From contig OZ024743.1 in NCBI GenBank assembly GCA_964016885.1, forward strand, positions 221,898,001 through 221,962,000: a DNA stretch of 64,000 nt, written 5' to 3'. The position numbers were made by a program, and so were the translations under genes. Under the pieces are notes generated by a model. It saw only the letters and a list, made by a program, of their open reading frames with translations, was not told the origin of the DNA and made no database searches. Below are positions 1,711-50,549 of this stretch, piece by piece (the stretch's first letter is position 1; each line of letters opens with the position of its first letter). The DNA is from Eledone cirrhosa. Lineage: Eukaryota.

Positions 1711-1929
1711 GTACTGGAATTCTATAAGAATCCAACATTTATAATTTTCAACAGGCAAAGGGGAGTGCTAAGCTCTGAGGAATACCAACAGTATGAAACA
1801 GAGATCTGTCAGCTTATCTCCCTTTGTTTATTGAAAAAAGAAATAAGTGACATAGTCACTGCTTTAAAACAATAGCGTAAGGTCTTCAAAATGCTTTTAA
1901 TTAAGCATACAGTGTATTGCCAAATACAC

Positions 1930-9209: not shown

Positions 9210-10307
9210 GAGTCTGAACGGACGTCTTTTTGCTCGCCCCCGTAAGTTCACTTATTTACCTATCAAAATAGATTTTTTGAATTTTTGTTGTTGTGTAAAG
9301 CATACAATCCCTTGAACCTTGCCCTGTGAAGGAGAAATAATAATATTTGGGCCTTTTAGCCCAAATATTTCAACTTTTTTATATTTTAAAATATTTACGA
9401 AGAAAAGAAACAAAAAAAGCAAAAGAAACAAAAAAAAACATAGCTGAGCCACTTTAGCTTGTTTGGGTATTTTCCACGAATTGGCATAACTAGCTCCCTG
9501 CTAAAGGTGAAATAACATAGTTCTTATAATTCTTATAATTGATTTGTATACAAGTTAAAGTGAAATTGATTTTAAACTGAAATTATTCATTCGTTCGAAA
9601 ATATTCATAGAACACTGTACCAAAGACTGTTCTTTCATACTTATCCTCTTCAACTACACATGGATATTTGTCTTACTGTGGAGAAGGAATTAGAAACTTT
9701 GGGTGACATACCAACTTCTGTTGATAATATAAGGAAAGAAATCAGTGAAGGTATTATTACGTTTTGATTGCATTTTTATTACAACCACTAATACTTACTA
9801 TTATCGGTAGAGCGTCGGAGAGCAATGTTTGTGACATAAAAACAAAACAAAAACTAACAAAAACGTTAAAAATAAATAAATAAATCTATTAAAAAAAAAC
9901 CTGGCAAAAAACGCAAAAAAAAAGAAACTAAAAAAAAAACAAGAAACTAACAAAAATATCGCCAAAAAAACAAAACAAAGAAACTAACAAAAACGTTTCA
10001 AATAAATAAATAAATCTATATTTCTTTTAACGGCTAAAAAAAAGGGAATGTAAATTTGTTGGAATAGCCTCATTTTAGCAGCCAGCAGCCAGCAGCGAAG
10101 TTATTTAGCCTCATATCAGCAGCGAACAGCGAAGTTATTTAACCCTAGGCATGGGGGAGGTATTTTTGGATATCGCCGTAATTTGTTTTATTGGGCCACA
10201 GTTTAAAAATATTAAAGCATTAAAATTGTGTAAGCAACAAATAATTGGTAAGTTCCATTTATTATTTCCTATACCTAGTTTATATTTTGTTTGTAGACTG
10301 ACTCACA

Positions 10308-12947
10308 ATGAATAAGAAGTTTTCATCAGGTGCTGAGAAGCGTGCACTCAAAAGAAAAAAGGATTTGGAATCAGCAGGCAAAGCAAAAAGTCAAAGATTA
10401 TTGACTTTTTCTGCGCCCCATAGTGCAGATATTGAGGATGTTGCAGAAGAAAATATTCCTACAATATCTACAGGTGAAGCTGAAACTATTCCTGAAGGGG
10501 CTGAACCTGTGCTTCCTTCTCAAGTGACTGAACCTGCTGTAGAAAATATAAGTCTTTCTGCAGTTGAAAATGAACTTTCTGAAATTAGTCAGGCTTCAAT
10601 GCCATTTTTAAATGACAAAGCACGATTTGACACAGGAAAGAATAAAGTGAAAGATTACTTGAACATTTTAGTTGAAAGGGGTGCTTGTCAACCTTTGGAA
10701 AATGATGTGCCTACAGGAGACTATCCCATTATCCATTCTAGAAAATTCAAGAGCAGTTACTATAATTTAAAAAAAACCTTGAAGAACGAGTACACAGATA
10801 CTGGCTAGCTTATTCATACAAAGGTAATTATTGTTACTGCCATCATTGCTGGTTATTTGGTGATGAAGAGGTCAAAAACTCGCCATGGTCAAAGAGTATG
10901 AATGATTGGAAGCACATTTCCAAAAGCATTGAAAAACACTCTCAATCAAAAATTCATCACAGAGCAGTATATGCCTATAAACAGTTCGCCAAGAATATGT
11001 CCATTGGAGTTTCAGTGAAAAAACAAATGGATGCAGAAGTTCAAAAATGGAAATATGTTCTTAATCATCAGTTCGGACTTTTACGAGAACTTACATGTCT
11101 AGGATTGCCACTAAGAGGTCATAGAGAATCCTTGGATGCTGATAATCCAGGTGTGTACTTATCAATATTAAGGCACATAAGCACAATCGATCCTATTCTT
11201 AAACAACATTTTGAGGACAAGGGACAACTCAAATATCTGAGCAAAACTATCTTTGAGGAACAAGTCCAGATTCTTTCAAAAATGACACTTGACAAAATTG
11301 TTGATCTTTGCAAGGAAGCCAAATTTTTCACTGTGATTGCTGATTCTACAACTGATATAAGTCATAAGGACCAAATGGCGGTGCTATTGAGATTTATAAA
11401 AATTGACAGACTTGAAAAGTCAGTGGAAATTGTAGAACACTTTGTTGGATATTATCATGTCCTTGATGCTAGTGCAATTGGTATTACCAGTGTCATAGAA
11501 AAGGCATTGTTTGAAGAACTTGGCTTGCAGCGCAAACATCTTAAAGGACAGGCATATGATGGAGCATCTGTGATGAGTGGGGCATTAGGTGGTGTTCAAG
11601 CTTTACTAAAACAGAATATGGCACTGGACGGAAATACTTTTGTTCCATATGTTCACTGTCCTCCCCACCAACTCAATCTAGTTCTTGAACATGCAGCTCA
11701 AAGTGGTACTCCTCCACCTCTTGTTGAAATTAAATGCTTCTTTGATAACATTCAATCTATCTATGCTTTCTTTGTTAATTCAAATAGACGCTGGAGTCAA
11801 CTTCTTGATATGGCAAAAAGTCAGGAGAAGAATCTTTTAGAAGCTGTTGAGAAGGTTATTTCTAATTCAATTGACGAAGAAGTTGAATATGAGCATATAT
11901 GTGGCTCATCAAGATCCGGAACCTTGAAATCACTCTCTCAGACAAGGTGGTCAGCCAGACATAATGCAGTTTCTGCTCTCCTGGGAAACTTTCACAATGT
12001 CAGTGAATGTCTGGCAGATTTGATAGAAGAAAATCATGACTCAAATGAAGTAAAACAGGCAACTGATTTGCAAGGGAAAATGGACTGGACTTTTTTCCTA
12101 TCTCTACTTTGGTGGAACAAAATGTTAGAAAATATGAATTCAGCTAATCGTCTTCTACAAGCTAAGACAATTGATTTATTCCTTGTGACTGAGTGCTTTG
12201 AACGTTCAACAGATAAATTGGAAGAACTCAGATGCGATCACAAATTTGAACAATTTGTGGACCAGGCAAAAAAAGCCTGGAATGACGTGGGATTTGATGC
12301 ATCTGAAGCTGATTTTAAAATAACGCAAGTAAGGAGAAGAAAGATTATGGATGGTGAAGTTTGTGGTATTGAAAGACTAGCTACTGCTTCAGATAGATAT
12401 CGCACTGCAATTTATTTTCAATCACTGGATAGTATGATTGGGGAGATGAGAGCCCGAACTGAAGGAATAAAAAAAATATCTTCAATCTTTGGATTTTTGA
12501 GTCCAAATCGACTGGCTAAATGCTCAGATGATGAACTAAAAACACATGTAGCAACATTGGTAGATAACTTTCCAAATGAATTCACACTGGAACTCAGAAA
12601 TGAACTCTTTTCTTTCATTGGCCTCTACTTTTCACAGCCAAACGCAGCTTTAAAACAAAGTGGGGTTATGCCATATCTGAAATTTTTACTGAACAATGAC
12701 TTGTGTGATGTCTTTCCCGAGTTTGAAATTCTGGTAAGACTATTTCTCACTTTACCAATTGGCATAGCAAGTGCGGAACGCTCTTTCAGTGTTCTACGAA
12801 GAATTAAAAATTATCTTCGTTCAACGATGGGCCAGGAGAGGCTATCCAGTTTTGCCCTGCTGGCAATTGAAAACAAAATTACTAAACTTGGACCACGCTA
12901 TAACTCATTTTTCAACTGTTAAAGCTCGCAGAGGTCTGCGCATGTAA
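10308..12947 (+). pseudogene. hAT transposase (ZMYM1-like/TTF zinc finger, DUF4371, dimerization domain) with two frameshifts
   Basis: WLAYS..YCHHCWLF..W..H..S..H finger; IADSTTD, AYDGASVM, CPPH, TRWS, AERSFS; frameshifts at the A-run near 10770 and near 12888 (alternate frame ends FSTVKARRGLRM*). Confidence 0.9.
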
Positions 12948-13200: not shown

Positions 13201-16104
13201 TTGACAGGGGGAGTCGTCAACAATAGATGGTGGGGGGCTCTCAAAAGAGAGATTAGAATAATTGTTTCTACTTTAGGCACAAGGCCAGCAATTACCCAGT
13301 GCATTACTGGTACTTTATTTTATCGACCCCGTAAGGATGAAAGGCAAAGTCAACCTCGGCGGGATTTGAACTCAGATCGTAAGAGAGATTAGAATAATGT
13401 CGATAGAGTTTAGCAAAGAAGTAGCGTTAGAGAAAAATAGAAAGGAGGGGGAGTTGGTAGATAAGTTAGACGAGGCTATTGGTAGTTGCATTGCAACAGA
13501 CGTGCTAGCGGCGAGAATGGCATTAGACAATTTCTTCAATGCGAAACACGAAGGTTGCATTGTCAGAGCTAAGGCGCGTGCTCTGAGAAACGAGGGAACC
13601 AAAACTGTTCGATGGGCCCGCATGGCAGAGGCGCAGCGTGGTAATAAAACCACGATTCGGTCTTTGACGGACCGAGACGGACACGAGCTGAACGATTCCA
13701 AGCGGATGTGTGAGGCCTTTCGCCAACATTTTGCTCGGTTGTTCGGGGAAAGTGGCGGGTCAGAGATGGTGGCGGACTTCAGTCCCTACCTCGAAGGCTT
13801 GCTGCAAATCTCGACGGCTGACGCTGGGCGCTGCGAAAGGCCAATTACTTCAGCCGAGATTCAGGATGCCCTTGTCGGCTGCATGAGGCGCAAGTCACCC
13901 GGTTTGGATGGTCTGCCCTACGAGCTTTACGTAAATATGCCAGACTTGTTCTCCAATCTCCTCGAAGCCCTCTACTGCAACTGGCAGCAAAACGGGAGTA
14001 TTCCCAGTTCTGTGAGCCGGGGCGTAGTGACGCTGATAAGGAAAGACGAGAACAAGAGGGACACATTAGACAATTTCAGGCTCATAACTCTGTTCAACAC
14101 AGAGTTTAAGATTTTGGCCAGGGTGTTAGCGAAGAGGTTGGCGCTTGTCGTCGGGGATTTGGTTGGGAGGCGCAAACTTGCGCAATCCCAACAAGGTCCA
14201 TACACGACAACCTCCACCTAATGCGATACATCATAGAGAGGGTAGGGTGTAAACCTGGCTTCGGTGGGGTTCTGATCAATTTAGATCAATCGAAAGCATT
14301 CGATAGGGTTGACCATCGGTATCTGGAGGCTGTCCTCAAGGCGGCTGGCTTCGGCCCCGTCTTCAGAAGCCGGATCGCTGCAATGCACAGCGGCACCTGC
14401 TCGATGGTCAAAATTAATGGCCACCTCTCGGAACCGTTTCAGGTCTTCCGATCGGTCCGTCAAGGGTGCCCTCTCTCCTCCCTTCTGTACATATTGACTC
14501 TCGAGCCTTTACTGCGGAAGCTGGAGCTGTTGCAGGGCATCCCGCTCGAACCGGGACGCGGAAAGGTTGTGTCGGCTTATGCGGACGACATCACCGTGAT
14601 GGTGTCGGACACCTCAGAAATCGAGGTGGTCGGCAACTTATTGCAGGAATATGAAAGGTTGACGGGAGCAAAACTTAACCCGGAAAAGTCGGTGGGCTTG
14701 CAACTCGGCACCTGGAGAGGCAGGTCCATGCCGTCCAACAGCGTCGTAAGGCGCTGGACGGACGGACCGGTAAAGTTGCTAGGGGTTTGGTTCGGGCCAG
14801 ACCTCCAGGTGGATAAGAATTGGGACGAGGTGACGGGCAGGGTAGCCAGTCTCACCCAGAAATGGGCTGGGATAAAGCTATCACTGAAAGGTCGGGCGGA
14901 AGTGGCGAACGCGTACATCACGTCCGTCATCTACTACCGTCTGTCATCTACTCCTCTACGTGGAGGGCTGGGCAGGCCGTGGCTAATGATGCGCAGGCAC
15001 GCGCTGAGGCTGCAGCATCTCCAGATATTCTGCCTAAACGGTGAACAGATGTGGTCGCCGTTTGTCAGACGGGCCTTCCCGCAGCTCGTTTCTTTGACTG
15101 AGCTTCAGTCCTGGGTCAAGAAGAGACCGAGACTGGGTGACTGGCATCTGGAATGTTGCCAGGCACTCACTGCCCTCTACCAGGTGGGCAATGCGGTCAG
15201 TGGAACTTCCACTCTCGAGTTCTATAGAGGATTAGTGGTGGGGAAGTGCGACGACGCACTCGGAGAGGCTCTGGGAGTCAACGAAGTCGAACTAACCAGT
15301 CTGTACCGGAGGACTTTCGAGCCGGGGACGATGGATAATTTCCAAAAATCCCTCGCTTGGCAGTGCTACCGAGGGGCACTGCCGGTTCGAGATAAACTCT
15401 ACAGGCACGGAAGTGCTGTCAGACGGACCTGCCCGAGATTCGCGCAGAGCGACGAAACCGTTCTGCACCCACTGGTCCAGTGTCCGTGCATTACTGACTT
15501 GTGGAGTTATGTTGAACAGCTGTTGTCGCGTGTGGAACGGATCCGGCTATCGGCCGAGTCCATGGTGAAGATCGACCCGCCGCCTTCTTTTGGCCAGGAA
15601 GGGCAGGCAATTTTCCTCTGTCTGGTGGCAGTAGCGAAAGAGGTTGTATGGTGGACGAGGTTGAAAGGACTGAAGACAGACACTTTTTCAAGCTTCACTT
15701 GAAAAGGAAGGTGAGGGTGGAGAGAGAAGAGCTGCCCTCCAGTACATTTGCTGAAAGGTGGGTGAATGTGGCGAGAATGGCTCGTGTGAGTGGGCCTACT
15801 CTGGTCATGCGGCTGTAGGTAGGTAAATTTGAGGAGGAGAGGGGTGCCCTTCCAGGGTGCTCTCGAAGCGTCGGGTCGTTCAGGATTGGTGGGGTACCTA
15901 AGCGAACCCTAGGTGGTCATCCCCCCTATTGGGGAATTTTTTCTTGTAATTTTCTTGTTACTTTATTGTTACTTTGTTATTGTTACTTTGTTATTGTTAT
16001 TCATATTGTTTACTCGATTTTTCTGTAAAACTCCACTGTCCCAGTCTTTTGTATTGTCCCCTATATGTCGGCCCTTGTGGCCAATAAATGAAATCATTAT
16101 TATT
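13201..16104 (+). mobile_element. L1/Tx1-clade LINE, 5'-truncated ORF2 (RT + zf-RVT), frameshifted
   Basis: KSPGLDGLPYELY, NFRLITLFNTEFKILA, LDQSKAFDRVDH, VRQGCPLS, AYADD, TCPR..DETVLH..VQCP; 3' aataaatgaaatc(att)n. Confidence 0.9.
13263..13380 (-). mobile_element. 5'-truncated family-S SINE inserted in LINE ORF2 with 18-bp TSD
   Basis: aagagagattagaataat at 13245-13262 and 13381-13398; removing the insert joins ...WWGALKREIRI to MSIEFSKE. Confidence 0.9.
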
Positions 16105-19712: not shown

Positions 19713-21693
19713 AAATTGGAATAAATGCTCTGAAATAGCGATATATATGTGAATATAGACATAGAATATTCGAAAATATTCTGTATGTTTATAATAAACA
19801 TTTTGAAGACCTAATCGCTATAGAATAGAATACGTCACGTATTACAATTAGATTCTCGATAAAAGCAAGGGAAGTAATCTACGCGTTTCATTCTTGTTAG
19901 AAATCATCAGGACTACATATCCAGTGCTTTTATCGAGAATGACACAGCTAGAGACTTATAGAATACTTAGCTGTGTACAGGAACTGGTTTGAAAGAGCGG
20001 TTGCCGGTCCGGCAGAAATTAGAAATTGGAATAAATGCTCTGAAATAGCGATATATATGTGAATATAGACATAGAATATTCGAAAATATTCTGTATGTTT
20101 ATAATAAACATTTTGAAGACCTAATCGCTATAGAATAGAATACGTCACGTATTACAATTAGATTCTCGATAAAAGCAAGGGAAGTAATCTACGCGTTTCA
20201 TTCTTGTTAGAAATCATCAGGACTACATATCCAGTGCTTTTATCGAGAATGACACAGCTAGAGACTTATAGAATACTTAGCTGTGTACAGGAACTGGTTT
20301 GAAAGAGCGGTTGCCGGTCCGGCAGAAATTAGAAATTGGAATAAATGCTCTGAAATAGCGATATATATGTGAATATAGACATAGAATATTCGAAAATATT
20401 CTGTATGTTTATAATAAACATTTTGAAGACCTAATCGCTATAGAATAGAATACGTCACGTATTACAATTAGATTCTCGATAAAAGCAAGGGAAGTAATCT
20501 ACCGGACCGGCAACCGCTCTTTCAAACCAGTTCCTGTACACAGCTAAGTATTCTATAAGTCTCTAGCTGTGTCATTCTCGATAAAAGCACTGGATATGTA
20601 GTCCTGATGATTTCTAACAAGAATGAAACGCGTAGATTACTTCCCTTGCTTTTATCGAGAATCTAATTGTAATACGTGACGTATTCTATTCTATAGCGAT
20701 TAGGTCTTCAAAATGTTTATTATAAACATACAGAATATTTTCGAATATTCTATGTCTATATTCACATATATATCGCTATTTCAGAGCATTTATTCCAATT
20801 TCTAATTTCTGCCGGACCGGCAACCGCTCTTTCAAACCAGTTCCTGTACACAGCTAAGTATTCTATAAGTCTCTAGCTGTGTCATTCTCGATAAAAGCAC
20901 TGGATATGTAGTCCTGATGATTTCTAACAAGAATGAAACGCGTAGATTACTTCCCTTGCTTTTATCGAGAATCTAATTGTAATACGTGACGTATTCTATT
21001 CTATAGCGATTAGGTCTTCAAAATGTTTATTATAAACATACAGAATATTTTCGAATATTCTATGTCTATATTCACATATATATCGCTATTTCAGAGCATT
21101 TATTCCAATTTCTAATTTCTGCCGGACCGGCAACCGCTCTTTCAAACCAGTTCCTGTACACAGCTAAGTATTCTATAAGTCTCTAGCTGTGTCATTCTCG
21201 ATAAAAGCACTGGATATGTAGTCCTGATGATTTCTAACAAGAATGAAACGCGTAGATTACTTCCCTTGCTTTTATCGAGAATCTAATTGTAATACGTGAC
21301 GTATTCTATTCTATAGCGATTAGGTCTTCAAAATGTTTATTATAAACATACAGAATATTTTCGAATATTCTATGTCTATATTCACATATATATCGCTATT
21401 TCAGAGCATTTATTCCAATTTCTAATTTCTGCCGGACCGGCAACCGCTCTTTCAAACCAGTTCCTGTACACAGCTAAGTATTCTATAAGTCTCTAGCTGT
21501 GTCATTCTCGATAAAAGCACTGGATATGTAGTCCTGATGATTTCTAACAAGAATGAAACGCGTAGATTACTTCCCTTGCTTTTATCGAGAATCTAATTGT
21601 AATACGTGACGTATTCTATTCTATAGCGATTAGGTCTTCAAAATGTTTATTATAAACATACAGAATATTTTCGAATATTCTATGTCTATATTC

Positions 21694-21694
<1 letters not shown>
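19713..21694. mobile_element. 310-bp hammerhead tandem array (non-LTR retrozyme-like): ~2.5 units on -, then ~3.85 units on +
   Basis: Period 310 (19713/20023/20333; CTGATGA at 20604/20914/21224/21534); inversion at 20501/20502; both outer ends abut (TA)n. Confidence 0.9.
20598..20640 (+). ncRNA. Minimal type I hammerhead (copies at 20908, 21218, 21528 on +; 19874-19916 and 20184-20226 on -)
   Basis: gtagtc-CTGATGA-t ttct aaca agaa t-GAAA-cgcg-TA-gattac; ACGCGT palindrome; enclosed by a 16-bp helix attctcgataaaagca/tgcttttatcgagaat. Confidence 0.9.
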
Positions 21695-21724
<30 letters not shown>

Positions 21725-24750: not shown

Positions 24751-25148
24751 TAAAAGTATCTCCATTTAACTGATTTATTTGACTACCATTGACCATTATT
24801 AATCAATTTATTGTCTACCTAAACAACTTTTCTTTTAAACATCATGAGACATTTAAATGTGAACCTATCATTAGAGAACAGCTTACCAACAACACCACAT
24901 TATTTTCTTTTGAAAAAAAAAGGTTCTAACTTCGAAATATAATTAAATATAAGGCTAAAATTCCTCATAACGGCCGATAGCAGCTTCTTTTCCCGTCTTT
25001 TCAGAGTCTTCACCCTATTTTATAAGGCATTTTATAGCATCGATGTGCTTGAGGACATCATCCTTTATACTTATATATATATATATATATATAGCGGCGA
25101 TGAATTAGTTTAGCGAGGTTTTTTATATGAAATCGTGTGTCGAAACAA

Positions 25149-27218
25149 ATATTGTTATACTTGGGGAGGGTCATATTTTTGTAATATTGCCAGAATTAAT
25201 AACAGAACACACTCACTGTTTGGTTGGTTTTCGCTTCTCGCTGTCTTTTATATCTGCGATCTAACTTAATCGGTCCTCAATGTTGCCATTGACTGACCGA
25301 CGGTCAAAAATAATACAGATACAATATAGACACAAACACATATATATAGTTTACATAATTTACAAAACTACCCTAAAGGGCCACATATTTAAGTTCAATG
25401 AGAAAATCTACACCCAAAATGAGGGAGCAGCCATCGGCGTCAGCATAGCTGGTGATGTTGCCAACCTTTTCATGGTATGGTGGGAAAGGAGACTTAAAGA
25501 TCTCCTTAATGAAAGCGCCATAGACCTCATCATGTACTCTCGTTATGTAGACGATATCAATATAGTTATAAGAACACCCCCACTAGAGAGCACTAACAAG
25601 TTTGATTTAGAACGTAGCACGATGGAAAGCATCCAGCAGATAGCTAATTCCATACACCAGAGTATAACTGTAACTATCGACTTCCCTTCCAAACACCCTA
25701 ACAATAGACTACCTGTATTAGACATAGAACTCTGGATTTGCACTATAGACGAGAGAGCCCAAATTCTCCACTCACACTATGCTAAACCCATGGCCTCCAA
25801 ATACCTGATACTCAAAAACTCAGCAATGTCCAGTAGTGCTAAGTTTAATATTCTGATCGCAGATTTGGTACGAGTGATGAAGAATGTGTCCAGCATGTGC
25901 GACCCAACAGAAATGTAAAGACACATCCAACACTTCATCAACCGCATGCAGTTCTCTAGCTACAACCAAAGAGACAGAGTCAGAGTATACGAAGGAGCCA
26001 TGGAAAAGTATAAGACCCTCATAGAACTGGACATGAAAGGAATTTTCCCATTATACAGGAGCAAATCATGGAATAGCTTAGATAGGGCTAGACATAAGAT
26101 AGGGAAGGCCACATCATGGTACGACAACCAAAGATATCAGAGTGTCATGTTTGTGGACGCCACCCCTGGAGGGAAATTAGCTAACCAGTGTAGAAAGGCC
26201 CTGAGAAAGACCCACTTAAACATAAAGGTGGTAGAAAAGCCAGGAACCACCATAAAATCCCTGATCAGCAAAACCTACCCTTTTAAGAAAACCCACTGTA
26301 ACAATAGGAAATGTATCATATGTAAGGTGAACCCCCGGATAAACTGTAAAACTAGAAACGTAGTCTATAGCATAAGATGTACAGAGGGTACTTGCAGAAA
26401 CATGACAACAACATACATAGGCGAAACAGCTCGTAGCATAGGTGAAAGGATAGACCAACACTGGGGGGAACTAAAAGGACGAAAAAACGGGTCAGTACTA
26501 TATGAACATGCTAGACAACAACATGACGGTAACATAGACAACATAGAAATTAGAATAATATCTAAACATAGGAATGACCCAGCAGATAGGCAAATCAGAG
26601 AGGCCAGTGAAATAGAAATTAGAAGACCAAAGCTAAACAGAAAGAATGAGTGGAATAACAACAACACCCAAACAAACAACACTGACCTAAGAGAAGTATA
26701 AATAAGTAAATAAAATTAAATAAAATAAGATAAATAAATACATACACAAGCACAATAACAACAAGCACATAAACACACACTAGTCACCCAGCAGACACAA
26801 CACTATACACACTAGTCACGCAGCAAACATAACGCTATACACACACGCAAACGCATGCGCAAAGAATACAAAATAAAATAAACAAACAAGCAAATAAATA
26901 AATAAATATATAGACAGACTGAATAAAAAATCGCGTAGACATACAACACAACAGGAGGAAAAAATATAACACCACTGACGATGTTGCAGATGTGCAACGA
27001 AAGATTTATGTAAATTATGTAAACTATATATATGTGTTTGTGTCTATATTGTATCTGTATTATTTTTGACCGTCGGTCAGTCAATGGCAACATTGAGGAC
27101 CGATTAAGTTAGATCGCAGATATAAAAGACAGCGAGAAGCGAAAACCAACCAAACAGTGAGTGTGTTCTGTTATTAATTCTGGCAATATTACAAAAATAT
27201 GACCCTCCCCAAGTATAA

Positions 27219-27224
<6 letters not shown>
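25149..27224 (+). mobile_element. Penelope-like element A, 5'-truncated, with an inverted 216-bp copy of its 3' end
   Basis: RT (EGAAIG, YSRYVDD) and GIY-YIG (NVVYSIRC...YIGETARSIGERIDQH) in ORFs 25280-26701; 25149-25364 is the reverse complement of 27009-27224. Confidence 0.92.
26971..27012 (+). ncRNA. Hammerhead-like core in the PLE A pseudo-LTR
   Basis: CTGACGA-t gttgca gatg tgcaac-GAAA; stem I/III pairing weak; homolog with CTGATGA at ~45027-45058 (-). Confidence 0.55.
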
Positions 27225-27685: not shown

Positions 27686-27751
27686 TATTTTGTCTGAAGA
27701 TGGCATAACATATTGTTAATATGATATCCCTGAAATATATATAACGAAATA
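27686..27751 (+). ncRNA. Minimal type I hammerhead in a ~200-bp (TA)n-embedded element
   Basis: tattttgt-CTGAAGA...GAAA-tatata-TA-acgaaata. Confidence 0.7.
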
Positions 27752-28805: not shown

Positions 28806-28866
28806 TATTTTATTATATATATTTCAAGGGTACCAAAATGTTGGTACGTGCTCATCAGATAAAATA
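28806..28866 (-). ncRNA. Minimal type I hammerhead, homolog of 27686-27751
   Basis: tattttat-CTGATGA-..gtacc..ggtac..-GAAA-tatata-TA-ataaaata on - strand; shared downstream aaatatggttttataaa.atagtttccat. Confidence 0.75.
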
Positions 28867-29942: not shown

Positions 29943-29944
<2 letters not shown>

Positions 29945-30060
29945 TATTAAAATAACAGATTAAAGTTTAAGCAAAGAATCGCTGCATTAGTTTCAGAAGA
30001 TCCCGTTAAGGGTGAAAGCAGCGATTCTTTGCTTAAACTTTAGTCTGTTATTTTAATAAA
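29943..30060. repeat. 43-bp inverted repeat enclosing an HHR-like core (mini tail-out PLE-type insert)
   Basis: 29943-29985 vs 30018-30060; loop CAGAAGA-tccc gttaa gggt-GAAA; same tail at ~47335-47460 and ~54642-54770. Confidence 0.75.
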
Positions 30061-30226: not shown

Positions 30227-33200
30227 ATATATAACGGTAGATGTCTGCCTGTGTGTGTGTGTATGATTTTTATGCATTTCGACATTTCTCTACCGATTTT
30301 GATGATTTTGTTCCCAATGTACTCCAAATTTATCAGGGCAGGTCAACACGTAATTATTTTTGCCAAATATTTCCTGCTTCCATAAAAAAAGTCGATAAAA
30401 CTAAATACATGCTGTAACCCTCTCCCTTACACGCTTCATTCTTCTCACTACTACTATCAAAAATATATAAAACTACATACATGCTGCAACTCTCTTTAAA
30501 AGGTTCATCCTTTCCTCTACTCCACTCTCAATCTCCTCTGCAACTCTCTTTAAAAGGTTACTGCCTCCGTCTACTACCCTACAATTTAAAACAACGACAA
30601 AACTTCTTTTGGAGGTAAGCAACACATCGATTTATACAACAACCATAGCTTTACTCTCTCCGTCGCTCTTCCCTCTCTCTACAATACATTATTCCCCCTC
30701 TCTATAATTTAACTGCTTTACTCTCTTTATGCTTCGAGGTTTAACACTAGCTTCACTCTCTCCGTCGCTCTTCTCTCTATATATAATAGATCATTCCTCC
30801 TCTTCGTTCGGGAACGCGAAAAAAACTTTGATAACTAAGCGACACTCATACATCAAATATCAAAATTTAAAAAGCCGATAACACTAAATACATACTGCTC
30901 TCTCAACGTTACATTTTACACACTTACATTTTACATCAAATAACAAATATTCACCCCCTCTCTATAATTTAACTGCTTTACTCTCTCTGTCGCTCTTCAC
31001 TCCCTATATGACAACACTGCAGTGGAGCGTTCCGTATTGAGCGTTCCGTATTGACATACGGCTTATCTGGGGCATTTTTAATCGGCTTATTGCAAATAAC
31101 AACCCGCAAAATAACACTTCATATAACAGATTAATGCTATAGACATATGAATCGGAATGTAACCCGTGAACTTTTTCCTGGGCAAAATTATTCGAACAGA
31201 CATGACCTCATTGCCACAGTATTCAGACTGAAACTGGCTAAACTCATGGGTTTAATAAAAAAAGGTCAGGTATTTGGGGCTGTAAAATGTGACATGTTCA
31301 CTGTCGAATGGCAAAAACGAGGGCTGCCACATGCTCACATTTTGATTTGGTTAGCTGATAAAATCAATTCAAATGCCATAGACATCTTCATTTCGGCTGA
31401 AATCCCTAACCCAGCAACTGACCAGGAATTACATGACATCGTCAAAGCTAACATGGTCCGTGTGCGTCGGGTCCTAATGAGCATCACACGTGTCTGAAGG
31501 GGGGTCGTGCAGTAAGGGATACCCCAAAAAATTTTTTGACCAGACTCAGACTGGTGGCGACGAGTACCCCCTGTACAGGCGGAGACGGCCCAAGAAAGGT
31601 GGCTTCACCACAACAGTAAGGGGAGGTCAAGTCGACAATAGATGGGTGGTCCCTTACTGCCCGCTTCTCTTGAAGATGTTCAACGCCCACATCAACGTTG
31701 AGTTTTGCATCTCCATCAAGTCGATAAAATACATATGCAAATATGTAAATAAGGGCTCTGATGCCGCAATGTTCGCATTTCAAGCTAAAAATAGCAGGGA
31801 CGAGGTCACAGAATACCTGGCGGGGCAATGAAACTTTTTGGTGCCTATCTAGTTTACCCCTACACCAACGTCACCCCGCCATCGTACAGCTTGAGGTACA
31901 TTTGGAAAATGGGCAAAGGGTTTACTTTACGGACCAAACCGCCGCCAAGTTGGCCGCCGATCCAAAAGAAACCACTCTGACGGGTTTCTTCAAACTTTGC
32001 CAGTTCGATACATTTGCGCAAACAATTGTGTACTTCCAGGTTCTATCCTACTTTATATAGTCGAAAAACACTTGGGTGCAAAGAAAGTCAGGTCAGGCTG
32101 CTGAAATACATCCTGGTGTAAAATTTGACAGCTGTCTTGGAAGGGTTTACACTGTGTCCCCAAGTCAGCATGAGTGCTTTCATCTCCGCCTTCTTCTGCA
32201 TGAAGTTGTAGGCTCACAAAGTTTTTAGGACCTCAAAACTGTTGATGGAGAAATATGTGATACGTACCGGGAAGCCTGCTTTAAGCGTGTCTTTTGGAAG
32301 ATGATTCGCAATGGGATTCCACTTTAGCAGAGGGTGCTTTGTTGAAATCACCTAAAGGTCTACGGGAACTCTTTGCCATTTTGCTTCAAAAGTGTGAATT
32401 GGTGATCCCAAATATTTATGGATCAAGTACAGAGACTTCATGTCTGAGGACTTCCTGCGCCTAGCTCATCTGCAGTATACTTCAGTGGAAGTTGGTTACA
32501 GCGACATTATCTACAACAGGACACTCATTGATATCGAGGACGCCCTCCTCGATATGGGTCAGAGTGAGTTGGCGACGTATGGCTTGCTGTCAACCGTCAG
32601 AGAGGAAGCTAACACGTTGGCCCCGGATTTGTTGCGGGAAACAGCATATGACATCGAATCTCTTTCCCAATACTTAGAGGAAAATGAGCCCAAACTTCTG
32701 TTGGCCTATTTAACTATCATTGACACGGTTCAAAATCAGACTGGGGTATTTACTTTCTCCATACTCCTGGGGGTACCGGAAAAACTTTTGTAACGAAATT
32801 GATTCTCGCTAAGATTCGTCAGGAGAAAAAAATTACGTCGGCCGTTGCATCGTCCGGGATCGCTGCTACTTTGCTGCCGGGAGGCAGGACAGCACATTCA
32901 ACCTTTAAACTCCCCTTAGATTTAGTAAAAACTGAAACACCAACATGCAATATCAGCAAGAGTTCGCACGAAGCTCTGGTTCTCAAAAAATGTTGCTTCA
33001 TTGTGTGCACAATGACACACAAGGGTGCCCTTGAGGCATTGGACGGGACCCTGAAAGACATTAGGGATTCTACAGCTCCTATGGGTGGCGTAACCCTTCT
33101 GCTATCAGGGGATTTTCGGCAAACGCTGCCTGTCATACCCAAAGGGACAAGAGCTGATGAAGTGCGTGCCTGCCTTAAGTCGTCCATGTTGTGGTTCTAG

Positions 33201-34343
33201 GTGAAGAGTTTGTACCTGAGCACAAATATACGTGCTCATTTGTATGGTGACAACATGTCTGCAGCATTTGCTCAGAATATTTTAGCACTTGGTGAGGGCA
33301 AGGTCCCTGCGGATGACAAGGGCGGCATAGCAATCGACTCCCTGTGCAACATTGTGAGCAGCTCTTCTTACCTTTGGGAAGCAGTTTTTCCTAATGTCTC
33401 ATCTACCTTTAAAAACCTCGATTGGCTCAGCGAAAGAGCCATCCTTGCTCCGAAAAATACCATGGTTAATTTTATTAACGAGCAGCTGATTGAGAAGTTT
33501 CCCGGTAAAGAACACATCTTCAAATCTATCGACCGGACGTCAGACTTCGACGATATCGTTAATTATCCGGTTGAGTTATTAAATTCCCTTGAGCCCCCAG
33601 GGCTCCCACCTCACATTCTTAAGCTTAGGGTTGGCTGTCCCATTATGCTAATAAGGAACTTGCGTCCACCAAAGCAGTGCAACGGTACTCGCATGGTCGT
33701 CAAGTCACTGACGCCCCATTTGATTGAGGCCACCATTGTAACGGAGTGCGGGAGAGGGGAGAATGTTTTCATTCCAAGGATGAACCTTTTCCCCTCGGCG
33801 TCAGATATCCAGTTCGATTTCCGGCGATCCCAATTCCCGGTGAGACCATGTTTTGCCATGTCCATTAACAAGTCACAAGGGCAAACATTGTCGGTGGCGG
33901 GCATCCATTTGGGGGAGCCATGCTTCTCCCATGGCCAACTTTATGTTGCCTGTTCCCGCGTAGGGAGCAGGAATGGACTTTTTGCTTACACTCCTCAAGG
34001 GATGACACGCAATATCGTCTACAAAGAGGTGCTATAGATGTTGGTGCAGGTGGTGGAGCTATACCGTCTGGAAAACTGGTAGGGTCACCCATAGCGGACA
34101 GATCTGACACCCAGCGGCATCAGGGCCACCATCTTGCAACTTTGGTCTACTAAATTCGCTATTGGAAGATTATTAACCTATCATTGATTGTCCAAAATGC
34201 TAATTGGTTCGTAACTATTAATAACCGGTTCAACTGCTTTATGCACTTAATTGATAAGCTTATGCGCTTTCAAGCTACGTTTACCTGCATGTAACTTTTC
34301 ATAGCAAATGAACAAACCCGAGCAACGCCGGGCTAAACTGCTA
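30225..34343 (+). mobile_element. Decayed, internally deleted Helitron (Rep + Pif1-like helicase)
   Basis: VEWQKRGLPHAHIL, KYICKYVNKG, GTGKTF (frameshifted), VASSGIAATLLPGGRTAHS, GDFRQTLPV, FAMSINKSQGQT, HGQLYVACSRV; 3' cccgagcaacgccggg hairpin. Confidence 0.92.
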
Positions 34344-34349
34344 AACTGC

Positions 34350-37300
34350 TTTTTTTTAATAAACGTGATTTGATTGGTTGTAAATGAAATTTAGCTGTCA
34401 CGTGAACAAGTTTTCATTACATTTTCGCGCCCTTATTTGGAAATCTATTCTGTAGCCTTTATAGAGAATGTTATGACAAGGAAAAGATAGTGGTCAAGAG
34501 AAATGGGATGGGAGAATTGTTCTGGTTCAGTGAATATGGTTAGTTCGCTGGGGTGTCAGAGTTCAGATTTTCTATTGAAGTAAAGATATGTATGTTTATT
34601 TGTGTGCTTGTGTGTGTGTGTGTGTATGTGTGTATTGGAAGATGATTCTATTAGTAGAAATGGGGGAGGGAGTTGTGTGTGTGTGTATATGGGTGTTATG
34701 TGTGTGTGTGCGAGTATGTTAAGATGGAGAGAATATATATTTTATGTGTGTGTATATATGTGTGTAGGAAAGTGGTTCTATTAGTAGAAATGGGGGAGGG
34801 AGTGTGGGTGTGAGGGTTGTTATGTGTGTGTATGGGTGTTATGTGTGTGGGAGTATGGTTAGCATGTGAAGATGAAGATAATATATATATATATATATTG
34901 TGTGTGTGTGTGTGTGTAGGAAAATGATTCCTTTAGTAGGAATATTTTTGAATGAACATATTTTCCTTACTTATTCGTATTTGTTCTGTTGTATTGTCAG
35001 TGCAAACGTATGTTAAGGTTTATTTAGTTCGGGTTTTTATTTTCTAAAGTATAAGGTGTTATGTGTGTGTGTGTATGTCATGTTATGGTGTTGACATAAT
35101 GTATATTAAACCATATTTAATGCTGGTCTATATTTTTGAATAAACATATTTTCCTTATTTATTCGTATTTGTTCTGTTGTATTGTTAGCGCAAAGGTAAA
35201 ATGGGAAGACTTGGAATTTGGGTGTCTTATTACTTGCGCATATGTCTAGATGTGCACTTAGTGGTATCTGTCTCGTGGTTGGATCTCGTAATTGTTGGCG
35301 ATAAACTGTCATTCTGTTTCTGAGTGTGAGTTTAGTTTGTCCTATATAATCTTCATTGCATCCTTTACATTTAATGGCATAAATTAGATTTTTTGATGAG
35401 CAAGTGAAGTGATTTTTTACAGTAAAATTTTGTCCTGATTTAAATGTATACGTATTGCCTTCAATGAGGTGAGTGCAGGTTCCACAATTAGAGCGACCAC
35501 ATATTTTGATACTTGGTTGTGGGTTTGTGGTAGGTAATTTGGCATTGGTGAGTAATGTTTTCAGTGATTTTGGTTGTCTTTTGCTTTTGATTATTTTGTG
35601 TGTTTCAAGGGCTTTTTTCATTCTTGGGTTTTATTTTAGTAGTGGGATGTTCTTGTGAATAGTGTTGTAAGCTTCCGCATTTCTTGGGTTGTGTGTTGAG
35701 ATATATGATAGAATATTGGACGTACCTTGAATTTGTTTCTGTTTTCGTAATTCATCAATGCCTATTGCTTTAGCCCTTTCTATTCCATTATTTATTAGTA
35801 ATAGTGGGTACTCTCTCTCGAATAGAATTTCCTTTAATTCTTGAAGTCTTTTATTTCGCGTTTCATAATTGGAGACAATTGTGCAAATTCTTCTTGCTAG
35901 GTTAAAAGGAATGTTCGTCTTCGTGTGCTTTGGATGGTTGGAGGTGAATAGCAGATATTGTTTGGAATCTGTTGGTTTGTAGTGTATGTCAGTTTCGATA
36001 TTTGCGTCTTTTTTTAAGATTAAGATATCCAGAAATGGGAGTTGATCTTGGCTGTATTCCATTGTGAATTGGATGTGGTTATTGATGCCGTTTATTAAGT
36101 TTTTGAAATCCTTCAGTTGGTCGAGTGTGTGGGAACAAAGAATGAGACAATCATCCAAGTAACGTTTCCAATTCTCTGATAAATATTTGTGGAAGTTCAA
36201 TCCGTATTTTGATTTGGACTGTTCATATATCTGGACTTCTAAGTATGCCATGACTAAGTTGGCATAAGTTGGAGCGGCTTTTGTACCCATCGCAGTCCCC
36301 GATATTTGCTTGTAAGTATTGCCATCGAAATCAAAAAAGTTGTTCTGTAAGATGAATTTTAATCCCTCGGTGATGAAGCTTTTTTCTATTCTGTCAGGTA
36401 TCTCATTGGGATATTTCTCTAGCCAGAATCCTATTGCTTCTAGTCCGTATTGGTGTGGGATCGTTGTGTAGAGATTCACTACATCGAAAGACACAATAAT
36501 AGTGTCGTTGTTGACATGTTTGGGGAGGTGGTTTAAGAGGTCCAGATCGTCTCTTACAAGGCTTGGTATGTGTTTGAGAATTGGTTTCAGTAGTATGCCT
36601 ATAAAGTTGCTCAGTCTGTGTGTTTCACATTGTGGGCCCGCTACAATTGGTCTTAATTTTAAGGTCTGTGGGGTATAGTGTGTTCACGCAGGCTGAGGTG
36701 GATTGTTTACAGGCATCGTTAATTATTTTACACTTGTGGATCTTCGGAAGTCCGTAAAGGTTGCTGGTTTTGTATTCAAAATTTGTTAAATAATCGCGTT
36801 CCTTTTTAGTTAGGTCTTCCTGGTATCGATAAACCAGTGTGTTTAATCTGGTCATTATTTTTGATTGCTGGTAGTTTTTTACTCTTTCATAGTAATTTGT
36901 ATTTTGTAAGAGAGAGAACATGGAATTTTTATATTTTTCAGCCTCCATAATGACAACAGTACTTCCCTTGTCCGCTTCCTTAATTATATTGTCCGTATTG
37001 TTTTTTAGTTCATGGATAATCTCCCATTCCCTTCGACTCGTGTTGGGTTTGGGTTTAAGTTGCGGTAGTTCATGGTATGGGAAGGTAGCTATGTGGTCAC
37101 AAAATTTGTCCAGAACTCTGTTTCTACCTTTTGTTGGGTTGTAGCTGCTTTTATTCCGTACAATTGATTCGTCGTTATTCTCCTTGTCAAAGAATTTCTC
37201 TGTGAGACGTAATTTTCTACAGAAGTGTGAGATATCGTCATTTATCTCATTGGGGTTAGAGTATTGTGGTGTTGTTGTGAATTTCAGTCCTTTGGAGAGA

Positions 37301-38870
37301 ATTTTTACTTGTTGGGCTGAGAGGTTTGTATTTGAAAGGTTGATTATTTTCGGTTTTTCAAAATCGGTTTGTGCCACCGGGTGTCGTGAGTCCTTGGTCT
37401 AAAAAATGATTTTTCTGGAATGTTTTTTCAATGGTATTATTATATCTAATGGTATTTCCCCTGTTGTTGTGTGGTCTTGTATAGAAGTTTCGGACGTATT
37501 GAGGTTCGGTTTGTTGATAGTCCGGTTTGTAGATGTTGTTCCTTTGTGTGGGTTGGGATCTACGGTTTTGGAACAGGCTCTGTGTGGGCAGGGGTCTACG
37601 GTTTTGGAATAGGTTTTGTGTGGGTTGTGATCTGCGGATCAGGTCCTGCCTTGTGTTCGGGGATCTTTGGTTTTTGTTAGTAGGGTTATAGTTTTGTCTA
37701 TGGTTTCTGGGATTATCGTTATAGTTTTGCTGGGGGGGTGTTGGACGTTTTGTTACTTTTTTTGTTATTTGTTGTGCATGTGGTGTGTGAGTTTTAGTTT
37801 GTTTTAAAAATGGGTTACCTGTATGTTGTTCATTTTTGAAGTCCATTTCGTAGTTGTTGAACCAGGTGGCGTTTTTTCCCATCGCTGGAGGGATGTTAGT
37901 TCTTCATCCTCACAGTTTTCTTTCCAAAGTTTTAAGGTTTTTTGTAGAGTAGGCCTTCAGAGTGCTTTGAGATTTCTGTGTCCATCTGTTGGTCGAGTGA
38001 CTTGAATTTTTCTTCGTTGGAGTTGGCTCTTAATCGCAACAATTCTATTTCTGTTTTAAATTTTTCCAACGCCATCTTTTCCCTAAGTTTTTGTTGGTTT
38101 TCTGGTTCATTCGGGATGGGTTTTATTTGGAGTTTTTTGGGGAGGATGATTGGGGTAGAGTTTAGCCACTTTTCATATATGTCTGCCTTGCCATTATTTT
38201 TCAGGAGATTCCAAAGGGCGAATTTGCGGGCTGTGAGCTTTTGAGTCCATATGTTGATTGGGATGTTTTTCACTGAGTGGACATCTCGTAGATTGGGTTC
38301 TAACGGTTGTTCCAGCTTTTGGAGCATTGCTGTTTCAATGGTTTCGATTAGCTTAGTTAATACTGGCGTAATATTCGTCTCTTGGGTATTTTCTGTTTCT
38401 TCGTGGGGTCCTTTTTTTATAGATGTGTATTTGGTCCACTTTGTTGGTCAAAATTGAGAGTTTAGAGGAAATCTCTTTGAGTTCATTTAAGATGTCCTGG
38501 TTCAGTGAGTTGTTGTTTTTGAGACTTTGGTGGCATTTTCGGTCTTCGTGTGGTGGGTATATATTAGAAAGTGAGGTTTTTTTTACAAATTGAAAAATAA
38601 CCGAAGTGTCCTACACGAGTGAAAGTATAAAGAAAAAGAGATGAAATCGAAAATGCAACTGGAGTCTTATTTTTTTTTTAAATATATATATTTATTTGGT
38701 TCCTTTACCGGTTTCGCAGTTCTTCTGCTTTTCAAAAGTAGAGTTGAGATGGAGGGTCTGTGATTTTTCTCACATCTGGTTGGTCTCTGAATGTTACTTG
38801 TTTTATATGGAAAAAGTTGCTCGAAATGCCAGGTTTTTCGAGAAGTAATTTGATTGGTTGGTCAATAATT
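34350..38870 (-). mobile_element. Near full-length Penelope-like element B (Neptune-like Cys linker) with 5' pseudo-LTR and long upstream ORF
   Basis: KIINLS, IIKEADKGS, LYGLPKIHK, SFDVVNLYT, GTAMGT, RYLDD, CGRSNCGTC, NLIYAIKC...YIGQT; ~38570-38870 matches ~59390-59700; several frameshifts. Confidence 0.92.
38701..38740 (-). ncRNA. Variant minimal hammerhead (UUGAAAA core); copy at 59523-59562 (+)
   Basis: ctt-TTGAAAA-gcag aagaa ctgc-GAAA-ccgg-TA-aag; ACCGGT palindrome. Confidence 0.6.
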
Positions 38871-39198: not shown

Positions 39199-39200
<2 letters not shown>

Positions 39201-39367
39201 CTTCTCTCCCTTTCTTTGCTGAAAAAAAGAAGTAAATGACATAGTCACCACTTTAAAATAATACCGCAAGGTCTTCAAAATGTTTTTAATTAAACATACA
39301 GTATATTACCAAATATACTATACATACATTCATGTATACATCGTTATTTCAGAGCACCAATCCTAAT
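39199..39367 (+). mobile_element. Family-B retrozyme fragment between (TA)n tracts
   Basis: agcttctctccctt...gacatagtcac...ggtcttcaaaatg...ttatttcagagca aligns with 1811-1930 and with the 310-bp unit. Confidence 0.75.
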
Positions 39368-41386: not shown

Positions 41387-43812
41387 ATAGAAGGATTTTA
41401 ATGGATACAGTTTAGTTAAAAGGAATTTATTGACACGTGTTTCTATAACAGTTACATAACCTGAAAACAGCTGCTATCTACAAAGTATTAGTTATGCAGA
41501 CATTCAATATTTCAATGTTATTATCAACTGTCATTTCATCGGAATAATTTTACTGAGGACCTGTTTGGTTTTTATAGAGAATATTAGGAGGGAGGGGTGA
41601 AGTTGTTAGAAGAATAGTTGAGGGAGTGGTTTTTTGATAGCAGTGAGAATTTTTGGTGGCAGTGAGTAATTAGATTCCCATCTGTTGTTTTGACATTTTT
41701 ATATAGTGAAAAATCTCGGGATCGAAGATAGGACAGGACCACTCTTACCGGCGGTACCCACCTTCAATCTTAAGGACCATAAGGTAAACTTTGATAATGA
41801 CCCTAAATTAGATTAATCTGCCCCTCTAAATCAGATATAGGTAAAATAAGCAAATATATCTTAGATAGAATCATCCCCCAAATTAAGGCTAAGGTTAACA
41901 TTAAACTCTGGGGGAAGACCCAAGAAGCAATAAGATGGTTTAATAGCATTAGCAATAAGAATAAATCTAAGTTTATCCAGTTTGATATCGACGAATATTA
42001 CTCATCGATATAACCTGAAACTTTGAATAGAGCCATTAAGTTTGCTAAGGATAACTCTGACCTTACAAACGATGAAATTAAGATTATATTAGAAGCTAGG
42101 AAAACTATAGTCAAATTTGAGAACAGTTATTGGGTACGTAAAGATTGACCCTCTAACTTTGACATAACAATGGGCTCTAACGATTCGGCGGAAATAACTG
42201 ATATTGTGGGGTTATTTATCGCCTTTAGACTCCAGGAAAAATTCAGCAATCTCCACGCCGGAATATACCGCGACGATGTTCTCCTCCTAGTTAAAAACCT
42301 AAATAACCAAAAACTAGAAAAACTACGCAAAGATATAAGAAAACTACTACTCGAAATAGGACTAACTATAACATATGAATACAACCTTAAAGTAGTTAAC
42401 TTCCTGGATGTCACACTCAATTTAAACTCTGGTCTGATTAAACCGTTTCATAAATTGAATGAAAATCTCAAGTACGTAAATGTTGGGTCTAACCACCCCA
42501 TCTCTATAATTAAATCTATCCCTAAAAATATTTCCCTTAGAATCTCGGGTCTATCTTCTAACATACAAGTATTTAAGGAACACGCCGAGTACTACGATAA
42601 CGCCCTTAGTAAAGCAGGCTACCTCAACAAAATAGAGTATATAGATGAGAACAATGAAAACACCCAAAATAAATCCCACATAGGTAGATATAATAACACA
42701 ACACCAAACCACACTTACTACCATAGTATACACACCAGTAAACCAACAAACAAAACTAATAGAAAGCGATGCAAAGAGTACTTATCGTATAACCCTGAAT
42801 ACAATAGTTCCATTAGTACAAATTTACCAGTACTCTTCTTTAAAATAATTAAGAGACATTTTCCTACATCACACAAATACCACAAAATCCTAAACCCTAC
42901 CACTATAAGACTGTCATACTCTACAGCGTTAAACCTTGAACAACACATACAAAAGATCAATACTAGAAGGTTAAACGAAAACACTAAAAACTTAAGTACA
43001 AAGAACACAAAAAAAACAATAGACAATAGACTACAGAACATAAATAAACCACACCTAAGTTCGTCCGCAATACTACTCCAGAGAAAACCCAACGTACACA
43101 ACTGTAACTGCACCTATCCTGACAACTGCCCCCTCGGCAATAACTGCCTGGAAAAAAATATTATTTATAAGTGTACCATTAAATCCGGAGGCAACGAGTG
43201 ATATTATGTGGGATCAACGACAACATCGTTTAAATCTCGATTATATAGGCATTCTTACTCAATAAAACACCAGAGCCAAAGAAATGTAACAACTTTAGCA
43301 GAAAAAGCTTGGACGCTCAGGGATAGCGATCAAAAGTTTACCCTAAAATGGGAGAAATTAGCTAAATAAAACCCAAAGCTTCTCCAGGAGCCAAAATTTC
43401 TGCAAATTGTGTAATCTTGAGATTTATTACATAATCACACACAAGAGGAAATTGCTGAATAACAGAATTGAACGAACATTATTCTGCCGTCACCGAACTA
43501 AACCCTTTTTTCCCACTACAAGCTGAATATTACATAAAAGAGGGACATCCCCCCAACTATATAAACCTCAATCTAATTAGAAAAATATAAAAACAATCTC
43601 TTCTCAACATATATATGTATATTAATAACCTTAAATTACCACACTAAGAATGGAAAGATATGCTGATGAGAATAGGTGCAAATATGCTATAATGAATGTG
43701 TCTAAAAGCGACCATAAGTATGTATATATATGTGAATATGTATATAAATAAGTAAATATATATATGTGTTTGATGTGTATAGTTAGATGTAAGTGCATTC
43801 ATGTATTAAAGT

Positions 43813-43877
<65 letters not shown>

Positions 43878-44550
43878 GACTGGAGTATGTGTGTATATAT
43901 GTGTGTGTCTATACGTGTGTATATAAAGATAAGTTGAGTATGAAAATGTATACACATGAACGCGTATGTATGTACATGTATATATGTGTATATATATATA
44001 TGTATGCTTGTGTATATGTATGTAAGTATGAGCATGTAAGTATGTGTATGTGAGTATATGTATTTTGTAGAGGTGTGCATATATGTTTGTGTGTGAATGC
44101 GTGGGCGAAAGGATACGTACATTTGAAAGAAAAATTTAAGTCTGAATGTTAATTAAGTGCAAACACAAAATCAACCACGCATATCTATACTATCTCTAAT
44201 CCTTCTATAGATTTAGAAAAATAACCAATAATATATTCTATAAAAATGTCAAAACAACAGATGGGAATCTAATTACTCACTGCCACCAAAAATTCTCACT
44301 GCTATCAAAAAACCACTCCCTCAACTATTCTTCTAACAACTTCACCCCTCCATCCTAATATTCTCTATAAAAACCAAACAGGTCCTCAGTAAAATTATTC
44401 CGATGAAATGACAGTTGATAATAACATTGAAATATTGAATGTCTGCATAACTAATACTTTGTAGATAGCAGCTGTTTTCAGGTTATGTAACTGTTATAGA
44501 AACACGTGTCAATAAATTCCTTTTAACTAAACTGTATCCATTAAAATCCA

Positions 44551-45477: not shown

Positions 45478-45481
<4 letters not shown>
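44616..45481 (-). mobile_element. 3' fragment of a PLE-A-family element, interrupted by a family-S SINE (44664-44856, ~17-bp TSD)
   Basis: 45290-45481 matches the GIY-YIG end at 26490-26700; pLTR matches 25149-25364; atattgccagaaa(c/t)aat at 44647 and 44859. Confidence 0.85.
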
Positions 45482-46345
<864 letters not shown>

Positions 46346-50514: not shown

Positions 50515-50549
50515 CCTCCGAAGAAGAGATATTATCTCGAAAATTAAGG
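50515..50549 (+). ncRNA. Minimal hammerhead with U4C core (CCGAAGA); inverted copy at ~47686-47720
   Basis: cct-CCGAAGA-a gagat att atctc-GAAA-at-TA-agg; AATT palindrome. Confidence 0.65.

Follow-up and report, generated by a model that had tools for sequence, protein, structure and literature searches.

The window analysed here is a stretch of 64,000 nt from Eledone cirrhosa (assembly GCA_964016885.1, contig OZ024743.1, positions 221,898,001-221,962,000, forward strand), and the genome searched is the 3.0 Gb assembly. The window is rich in (TA)n and contains several open reading frames (ORFs) of Penelope-like elements (PLEs). Other mobile elements are represented by a hAT transposase (10302-12922), a LINE-type reverse transcriptase (RT) with a zf-RVT match (13370-15702) and a Pif1 helicase (Helitron-like) remnant (32724-34037). 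Another PLE, on the minus strand (35106-38447), has RT and GIY-YIG matches, and core scans found no hammerhead within it. Well-formed type I hammerheads of further families are located at 582-624 and 45990-46035; an imperfect, MITE-like palindrome of 350 bp (45478-45829) adjoins the 45996 hammerhead. The features that bear on the insertion ends discussed below are listed in Table 1.

Table 1. Hammerhead motifs and inserted arms in the window (positions are those of the window; predicted cuts are given as the two flanking bases).
Feature	Position	Strand	Remarks
Type I hammerhead, older retrozyme family related to the array	1769-1816	+	predicted cut 1810/1811
Minus arm, 310-bp hammerhead retrozyme insertion	19713-20502	-	2.5 units long; (TA)n follows its outer 3' end, which is at priming site B; the head-to-head junction forms the 5' end
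Plus arm, 310-bp retrozyme	20502-21703	+	3.9 units long; 3' terminus is priming site A, which lies ~35 nt before site B
Type I hammerhead of the 310-bp unit	20598-20640	+	6-bp stem I, palindromic short stem III; predicted cut 20634/20635
PLE-A inverted arm	25094-25364	-	begins exactly at the predicted cut (27009 equivalent), ends with the tail; stub from cut to priming site
PLE-A 5'-truncated arm	25365-27220	+	RT, CX4CxxC linker and GIY-YIG-like end (from translation), then pLTR
PLE-A minimal hammerhead	26973-27010	+	2-bp stem I; 6-bp stem II preceded by an unpaired base; short self-complementary stem III; predicted cut 27008/27009, the genome-wide peak
Short inverted arm, 29943 family	29943-29985	-	starts right after GAAA, 17 nt upstream of the predicted cut; not a cut-site end
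Hammerhead-like motif, 29943 family	29989-30039	+	U4-to-A core variant, 5-bp stem III, 5-bp stem I; predicted cut 30034/30035
Solo fragment, 1775/39199 family	39199-39365	+	flanked by (TA)n runs; extends from the predicted cut as far as priming site B
PLE-C inverted arm	41390-41703	-	includes a hammerhead-like motif (direct copy 44400-44437) with G at position 17 in its best register
PLE-D inverted arm	47575-47778	-	whole ribozyme motif inside (counter-example)
PLE-D ORF remnants, RT and GIY-YIG	48412-50133	+	translation and profile matches
PLE-D minimal hammerhead	50515-50549	+	U4-to-C core variant, 3-bp stem I, no helix III loop; predicted cut 50546/50547, the genome-wide peak

One cleavage bond was predicted for each family by combining a hammerhead core scan with a pairing scan across every NUH register. 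The bond falls 6 nt after the GAAA box in the 310-bp array and in PLE-A, 12 nt after it in the 1775/39199 family, 4 nt in PLE-D and 17 nt in the 29943 family; those of PLE-A and PLE-D are each the best-pairing register close to the core. Among the Rfam matches listed (150 of 188) there was no hammerhead family, just microRNA matches driven by microsatellites. Hammerhead-like cores with a long stem II also occur at 27694-27735 (+) and 28822-28858 (-), in TA-rich pLTR fragments of another family. Below, +1 denotes the first base after the predicted cut.

The array at 19713-21703 consists of short non-coding tandem repeats with one type I hammerhead each, the organisation of a non-LTR retrozyme, and its ribozyme core is present in 14,645 exact copies genome-wide. 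In the computed fold of the cut-to-cut monomer the ends pair with each other (z -4.4), which would be compatible with a retrozyme that gives self-cleaved monomer RNA, both linear and circular. Retrozyme subfamilies of 311 bp carry a 1-base insertion in the 3' strand of stem I, yet form long arrays; the matches listed, from a total of 2,056, are mostly of this kind. Head-to-head retrozyme insertions have strictly complementary 3' ends (site A versus site B), and their junctions mostly share 1-5 nt. When 80 arms were chosen by site A, 73 partners ended at site B (unit positions 300-309) and none at site A, the others being solo (4) or running off the locus (3). These complementary ends are the PLE tail signature, here carried by a retrozyme.

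A sequence-only reading of the window had proposed that several insertions start at ribozyme cleavage sites, as a genomic record of cDNA synthesis that ran off self-cleaved RNA, and had cited the array first. The minus arm does end close to the bond: position 20502 corresponds to unit position 20632, 3 nt past the best-pairing bond at 20634/20635, and 1 of these 3 nt is common to the partner arm. Genome-wide, however, 5' ends of this family are not enriched at the bond. From 714 insertions marked by one 3'-end pattern, 80 were decomposed, with repeats and arms running off the locus removed; of the resulting 158 5' ends, 3 lie within 3 nt of the bond (3.6 expected) and none at +1. A filtered genome-wide search gave 91 events from the matches listed (100 of 119), tallied by eye after removal of edge rows and repeats, with 2 at +1 against 2.3 expected and 10 in +1..-2 against 6.8 expected. 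For (TA)n-joined ends near the ribozyme, all 82 rows reduced to 22 loci, and 6 of these are within 3 nt of the bond where about 5 are expected. Paired ends showed no phase correlation (9/72 within 15 nt, P = 0.29). An apparent hot spot at unit positions 1-5 (5/18 ends) arose because the query started there, and it was gone in the unbiased sample (2/158 in positions 1-7). Median arm length is 1.1 kb, and on the 790 occasions when an arm arrives at the cut position it stops there 3 times. For the 310-bp array, comparison of 5' breakpoints with a uniform null thus refutes the cut-site idea: there is no peak at the predicted bond, and therefore the proximity of the 20502 junction to it is a coincidence. 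The 310-bp retrozyme was likely copied from circles or long uncut multimers, and so no breakpoint record of cleavage was left.

The solo copy of the 1775/39199 family begins exactly where it had been said to begin, since 39199 is equivalent to 1811, the base following the GUC at 1808-1810. The family yields a thin sample, with 1 of 11 events at +1 (by eye; 14 rows, of which 3 deletions were removed); in a smaller search 2 of 4 loci were at the cut, one of them the window's own copy. The short arm at 29943 had also been cited, as starting right after GAAA. Its inner end, 29985, indeed pairs with 30018, immediately after GAAA, but the predicted cut at 30034/30035 is 17 nt off; the 5-bp stem III and 5-bp stem I of this ribozyme place the cut at that distance, so that the arm is not an example of a cut-site end. 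Tallied by eye among the matches listed (100 of 890), ends of the 29943 family number none at the position that had been proposed, 3 at +1, 3 at -1, 11 at -2, 9 at +5 and 8 at -11, and 6 of the 11 at -2 are palindrome snap-backs. The 17/100 in +1..-2 (P = 0.002 against uniform) were not taken as support, because just 3 are at +1 and similar peaks occur at +5 and -11. PLE-C and PLE-D had been named as counter-examples, and the left arms of both do span the whole motif. PLE-C has 4 matches genome-wide, too few to serve as a G17 negative control.

PLE-A and PLE-D each have a pLTR, an inverted 5'-truncated arm and a tail on one end. A single frame of PLE-D matches both RVT_1 (E 2.6e-10) and GIY-YIG (E 9.8e-5). 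The PLE-A protein gives a weak RVT_1 match only (E 0.0019) with no Pfam match in its C-terminal part, the GIY-YIG-like motif having been recognised by eye from the translation; its CX4CxxC linker suggests the Neptune or Nematis clade, judged by clade descriptions. The PLE-A ribozyme core is present in 10,170 exact copies genome-wide. Both ribozymes are minimal type I hammerheads with CUGANGA and GAAA boxes, stem II, an NUH cut and a palindromic 15.2-16.2 region; helix I, 4-5 bp in the consensus, has 2 (PLE-A) or 3 (PLE-D) contiguous base pairs. A stem I of 2-3 bp, a U at position 17 and a U4-to-C core are each unfavourable for catalysis. Hammerheads reportedly lie near the 3' ends of EN-minus PLEs, as the Terminon paper is said to describe. 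Internal deletions via short repeats are recurrent in PLE-A, PLE-D and the older retrozyme, with loss of stem II or of the entire ribozyme core, and one such deletion of PLE-D was found again at several loci.

In the window's own PLE-A the inner end of the inverted arm, 25364, pairs with 27009, the first base after the predicted cut, which agrees with the sequence-only reading; 2 nt at this junction are common to the ORF sequence of the partner. Genome-wide, ends of PLE arms were collected by searches anchored on the pLTR 3' of the bond, with four A/T bases required 20-30 nt upstream, where intact copies are G/C-rich. All PLE breakpoint counts rest on this one A/T filter, and only arms with a 5' end in the interval between anchor and filter were listed.

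In the first PLE-A search, 25 ends fell in six positions around the bond against 13 expected (88 events by eye; matches listed, 100 of 271). Two narrower searches, one per sequence subtype, listed every row genome-wide. The subtype without TA before the cut was scored by script; its 45 rows gave 42 distinct junctions once repeated junctions were merged and one internal deletion was removed, and 10 of these are at +1 among 24 positions (P = 6.8e-6). Counted by locus, the figure is 12 of 44, and among rows from the part of the genome beyond the first search's listing it is 6 of 26. A null that allows for microhomology gives P<=5e-6 for the by-eye count of 13/45 at +1, and a simulation with microhomology and (TA)n partners never placed more than 6.6% of ends there. 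This subtype has U at position 17. A secondary pile of 6 is found at -5. The other PLE-A subtype has TA directly ahead of the cut; by eye, 22 of its 55 unambiguous rows (91 rows in all, 12 of them ambiguous) are in +1..-2, a count that is confounded in part by TA microhomology. For a duplication variant the figure is 3/17.

The bond of PLE-D was read from stem I pairing before the breakpoint search and was written down only later. Its rows were scored by script, and 85 were left after 2 edge rows and 9 internal deletions had been taken out and 3 repeated junctions merged. Among the matches listed (100 of 139), 11 of the 85 are at +1 among 45 positions (P = 3e-6), or P = 2.7e-4 when this count is tested against the denser 3' side alone. 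Second to +1 comes +5, where an AT-rich run finishes, with 9 ends. The 5' ends are 2.8 times denser 3' of the cut (49 in 18 nt) than 5' of it (25 in 26 nt); this excess may represent trimmed run-off ends or an effect of the filter.

In PLE-A and PLE-D, short inserted copies start at one base 5-6 times more often than expected by chance, and this base is the predicted hammerhead cut. The comparison of 5' breakpoints with a uniform null, proposed along with the original idea, thus yields a one-base peak at the predicted bond in each of these two families. The idea of cDNA run-off has accordingly changed its ground: it is supported for PLE-A and for PLE-D, the latter cited earlier only as a counter-example, and refuted for the 310-bp array and for the position at 29943.

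The cut-ended copies are short stubs (about 115-265 nt) and not the 5' ends of full-length elements. Each starts at +1 and stops at one or the other of two priming sites, with (TA)n at the end; lengths are about 200 or 245-265 nt in PLE-A and about 115-125 or 160-165 nt in PLE-D. In the cut-ended arms examined the priming site is 87-264 nt downstream, and none of them continues into an ORF. For PLE-A, the share of arms that are cut-ended is roughly estimated at 1.3-3.9%, with the subtype share taken from 4/30 sampled cores and filter pass rates assumed to be 0.2-0.6. When a cut-ended PLE-D arm has an inverted partner, the partner ends at +1 to +11 (9/9), and when an arm passes the cut its partner passes also in 10/13 (both by eye; Fisher P = 5e-4). 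This agreement hints that both arms were copied from one RNA; symmetric junctions of this kind are, however, favoured by the filter, and the PLE-A copy in the window differs, its partner arm continuing 1.6 kb past the ribozyme.

From their position, we suggest that the +1 peaks of PLE-A and PLE-D probably result from RT run-off on RNA that was self-cleaved in vivo by the minimal hammerheads. It is very improbable that the A/T filter, microhomology or a handful of duplicated junctions produced them instead. The filter does favour (TA)n-joined and snap-back junctions, three PLE-D rows have one junction in common, and TA immediately precedes the cut in the second PLE-A subtype. However, repeats were merged and deletions removed before counting, the microhomology null yields no +1 peak, and the same kind of filter applied to the retrozyme gave a flat profile (matches listed, 100 of 119). 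Moreover, in both PLE families the peak is present in (TA)n-joined and in other events taken separately; without the (TA)n-joined events, 7/29 (PLE-A) and 7/71 (PLE-D) are at +1.

RT might also have stopped at +1 on intact or re-ligated RNA, at the ligation scar of a circle (a 2'-phosphate or 2'-5' link), at a folded core or where a protein is bound. Of these, the scar would itself point to earlier cleavage, while a purely structural stop would not. Such stops would fit the finding that just a few per cent of arms end at +1, and a barrier could give the higher density of PLE-D ends on the 3' side of the site; but a stem barrier should act at the 3' edge of stem I or II rather than at +1 in two geometries, and the retrozyme arms cross their cut site with hardly a stop. 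We regard this explanation as unlikely. It seems quite improbable that the +1 end was made by a transcription start inside the pLTR, or by a GIY-YIG endonuclease cut in the cDNA or donor DNA. Promoters are presumed to lie in pLTRs, AT-rich DNA close to the border of ORF and pLTR is cleaved by the endonuclease in vitro (PMC11167929), and both +1 sites are AT-rich. Against this, coincidence with the ribozyme-predicted bond would be needed twice, independently and at different offsets, and an ATT motif immediately ahead of +1 is absent from the tested PLE-A subtype. G precedes +1 in only 2/25 junction rows, which speaks against a capped start, and the base pair preceding +1 is not AG, which speaks against a splice acceptor. 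What speaks against RT run-off from self-cleaved RNA is that the 29943 family lacks a +1 peak (matches listed, 100 of 890) and that the retrozyme families, which have the best-formed ribozymes, show none or too few such ends. The secondary piles at +5 in PLE-D and at -5 in PLE-A, and the catalytically unfavourable stem I and core bases of both families, also count against it. In Anolis, moreover, RNA-seq gave no read with either end at the cut, and insertion was normal with mutant ribozymes (PMC11167929).

If run-off is responsible, a small share of PLE template RNAs (a few per cent) would have been self-cleaved in vivo. The PLE protein would nick (TA)n, and cDNA synthesis would be primed at the two internal RNA sites that closely follow the ribozyme, from which RT would reach the 5'-OH end after a short run. 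Joining of the cDNA end, either to the partner cDNA or to (TA)n, would follow, frequently with the gain of a few bases. Cleavage might need a dimer or the PLE protein, because stem I has only 2-3 bp. Its products would be dead-end stubs without ribozyme core or ORF, and most PLE templates would be uncut or circular.

PLE-A and PLE-D match published PLEs (PMC4209133, PMC8557442, PMC11167929) in having an ORF with RT and GIY-YIG, a pLTR with a minimal hammerhead, an inverted 5'-truncated arm, an optional tail on one end, (TA)n targets and two priming sites; the tails measure ~45 nt in PLE-D and up to ~60 nt in PLE-A, compared with 30-40 bp in the published elements. The Penelope ribozyme of D. 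virilis has a 2-bp helix I, a 6-bp helix II and a bulge, as in PLE-A (Cervera and de la Pena 2014, PMC4209133). Minimal PLE hammerheads, including the form with a 2-bp helix I, were already known, without in vivo evidence (PMC4209133, PMC8557442, PMC7761336). Their function has been called unclear, and the available texts contain no evidence of cleavage in vivo (PMC4209133; Craig et al. 2021, PMC8557442; PMC11167929). According to Frangieh et al. (2024, PMC11167929), a PLE ribozyme requires its protein for cleavage in vitro, although insertion does not depend on the ribozyme. The same work describes two internal RNA positions at which PLE RT initiates, and an endonuclease that cleaves AT-rich DNA (PMC11167929).

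The nearest parallel is R2 with HDV-like ribozymes, where the self-cleavage site is likewise reflected in genomic 5' junctions (Eickbush et al. 2013, PMC3774820) and variable junctions are ascribed to chance microhomology (PMC3774820). In R2, cleavage sets the 5' end of the full-length element (PMC3774820), which is not what is found in PLE-A and PLE-D. Unlike R2, these two families have a hammerhead whose cut closely precedes the priming sites, and the record consists of short stubs that make up a minority of copies. The literature searched (main texts, with few subscription papers among them) holds no report of PLE insertion ends at a hammerhead bond. Within that scope, the one-base pile-up of genomic PLE 5' ends at the hammerhead bond appears to be new, ribozyme-defined 5' junctions being known from R2 (PMC3774820).

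The 310-bp retrozyme resembles metazoan non-LTR retrozymes in its AT-rich, non-coding tandem unit with one type I hammerhead each (Cervera and de la Pena 2020, PMC7229834; Li et al. 2026, 10.64898/2026.07.22.740005). It differs in forming discrete head-to-head insertions in (TA)n with a PLE tail on one arm (73/73 scorable partners); the words "inverted" and "head-to-head" are absent from the available text of Cervera and de la Pena 2020 (PMC7229834). For tandem retrozyme arrays, local amplification has been proposed (Li et al. 2026, 10.64898/2026.07.22.740005). The PLE insertion signature on the arrays described here favours the view that PLE enzymes mobilised them, with circular or multimeric RNA as the source.

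A one-base peak in two families would be direct-looking evidence of cutting in vivo; it names the bond, and the outcome is short stubs. A wider interpretation, which we put forward tentatively, is that genomic 5' breakpoints might serve as a fossil assay. According to it, minimal PLE hammerheads with a 2-3-bp stem I and non-standard core bases would cut in the germ line, inside the transposition complex, and so abort the copy; the ribozyme would thereby restrain the element that carries it, and a single RNA molecule would prime both arms of an insertion. The breakpoint test needs only an assembly, and is therefore applicable to any PLE-rich genome. If the interpretation is true, peak height per family would rank ribozyme variants by their in vivo activity in any genome.
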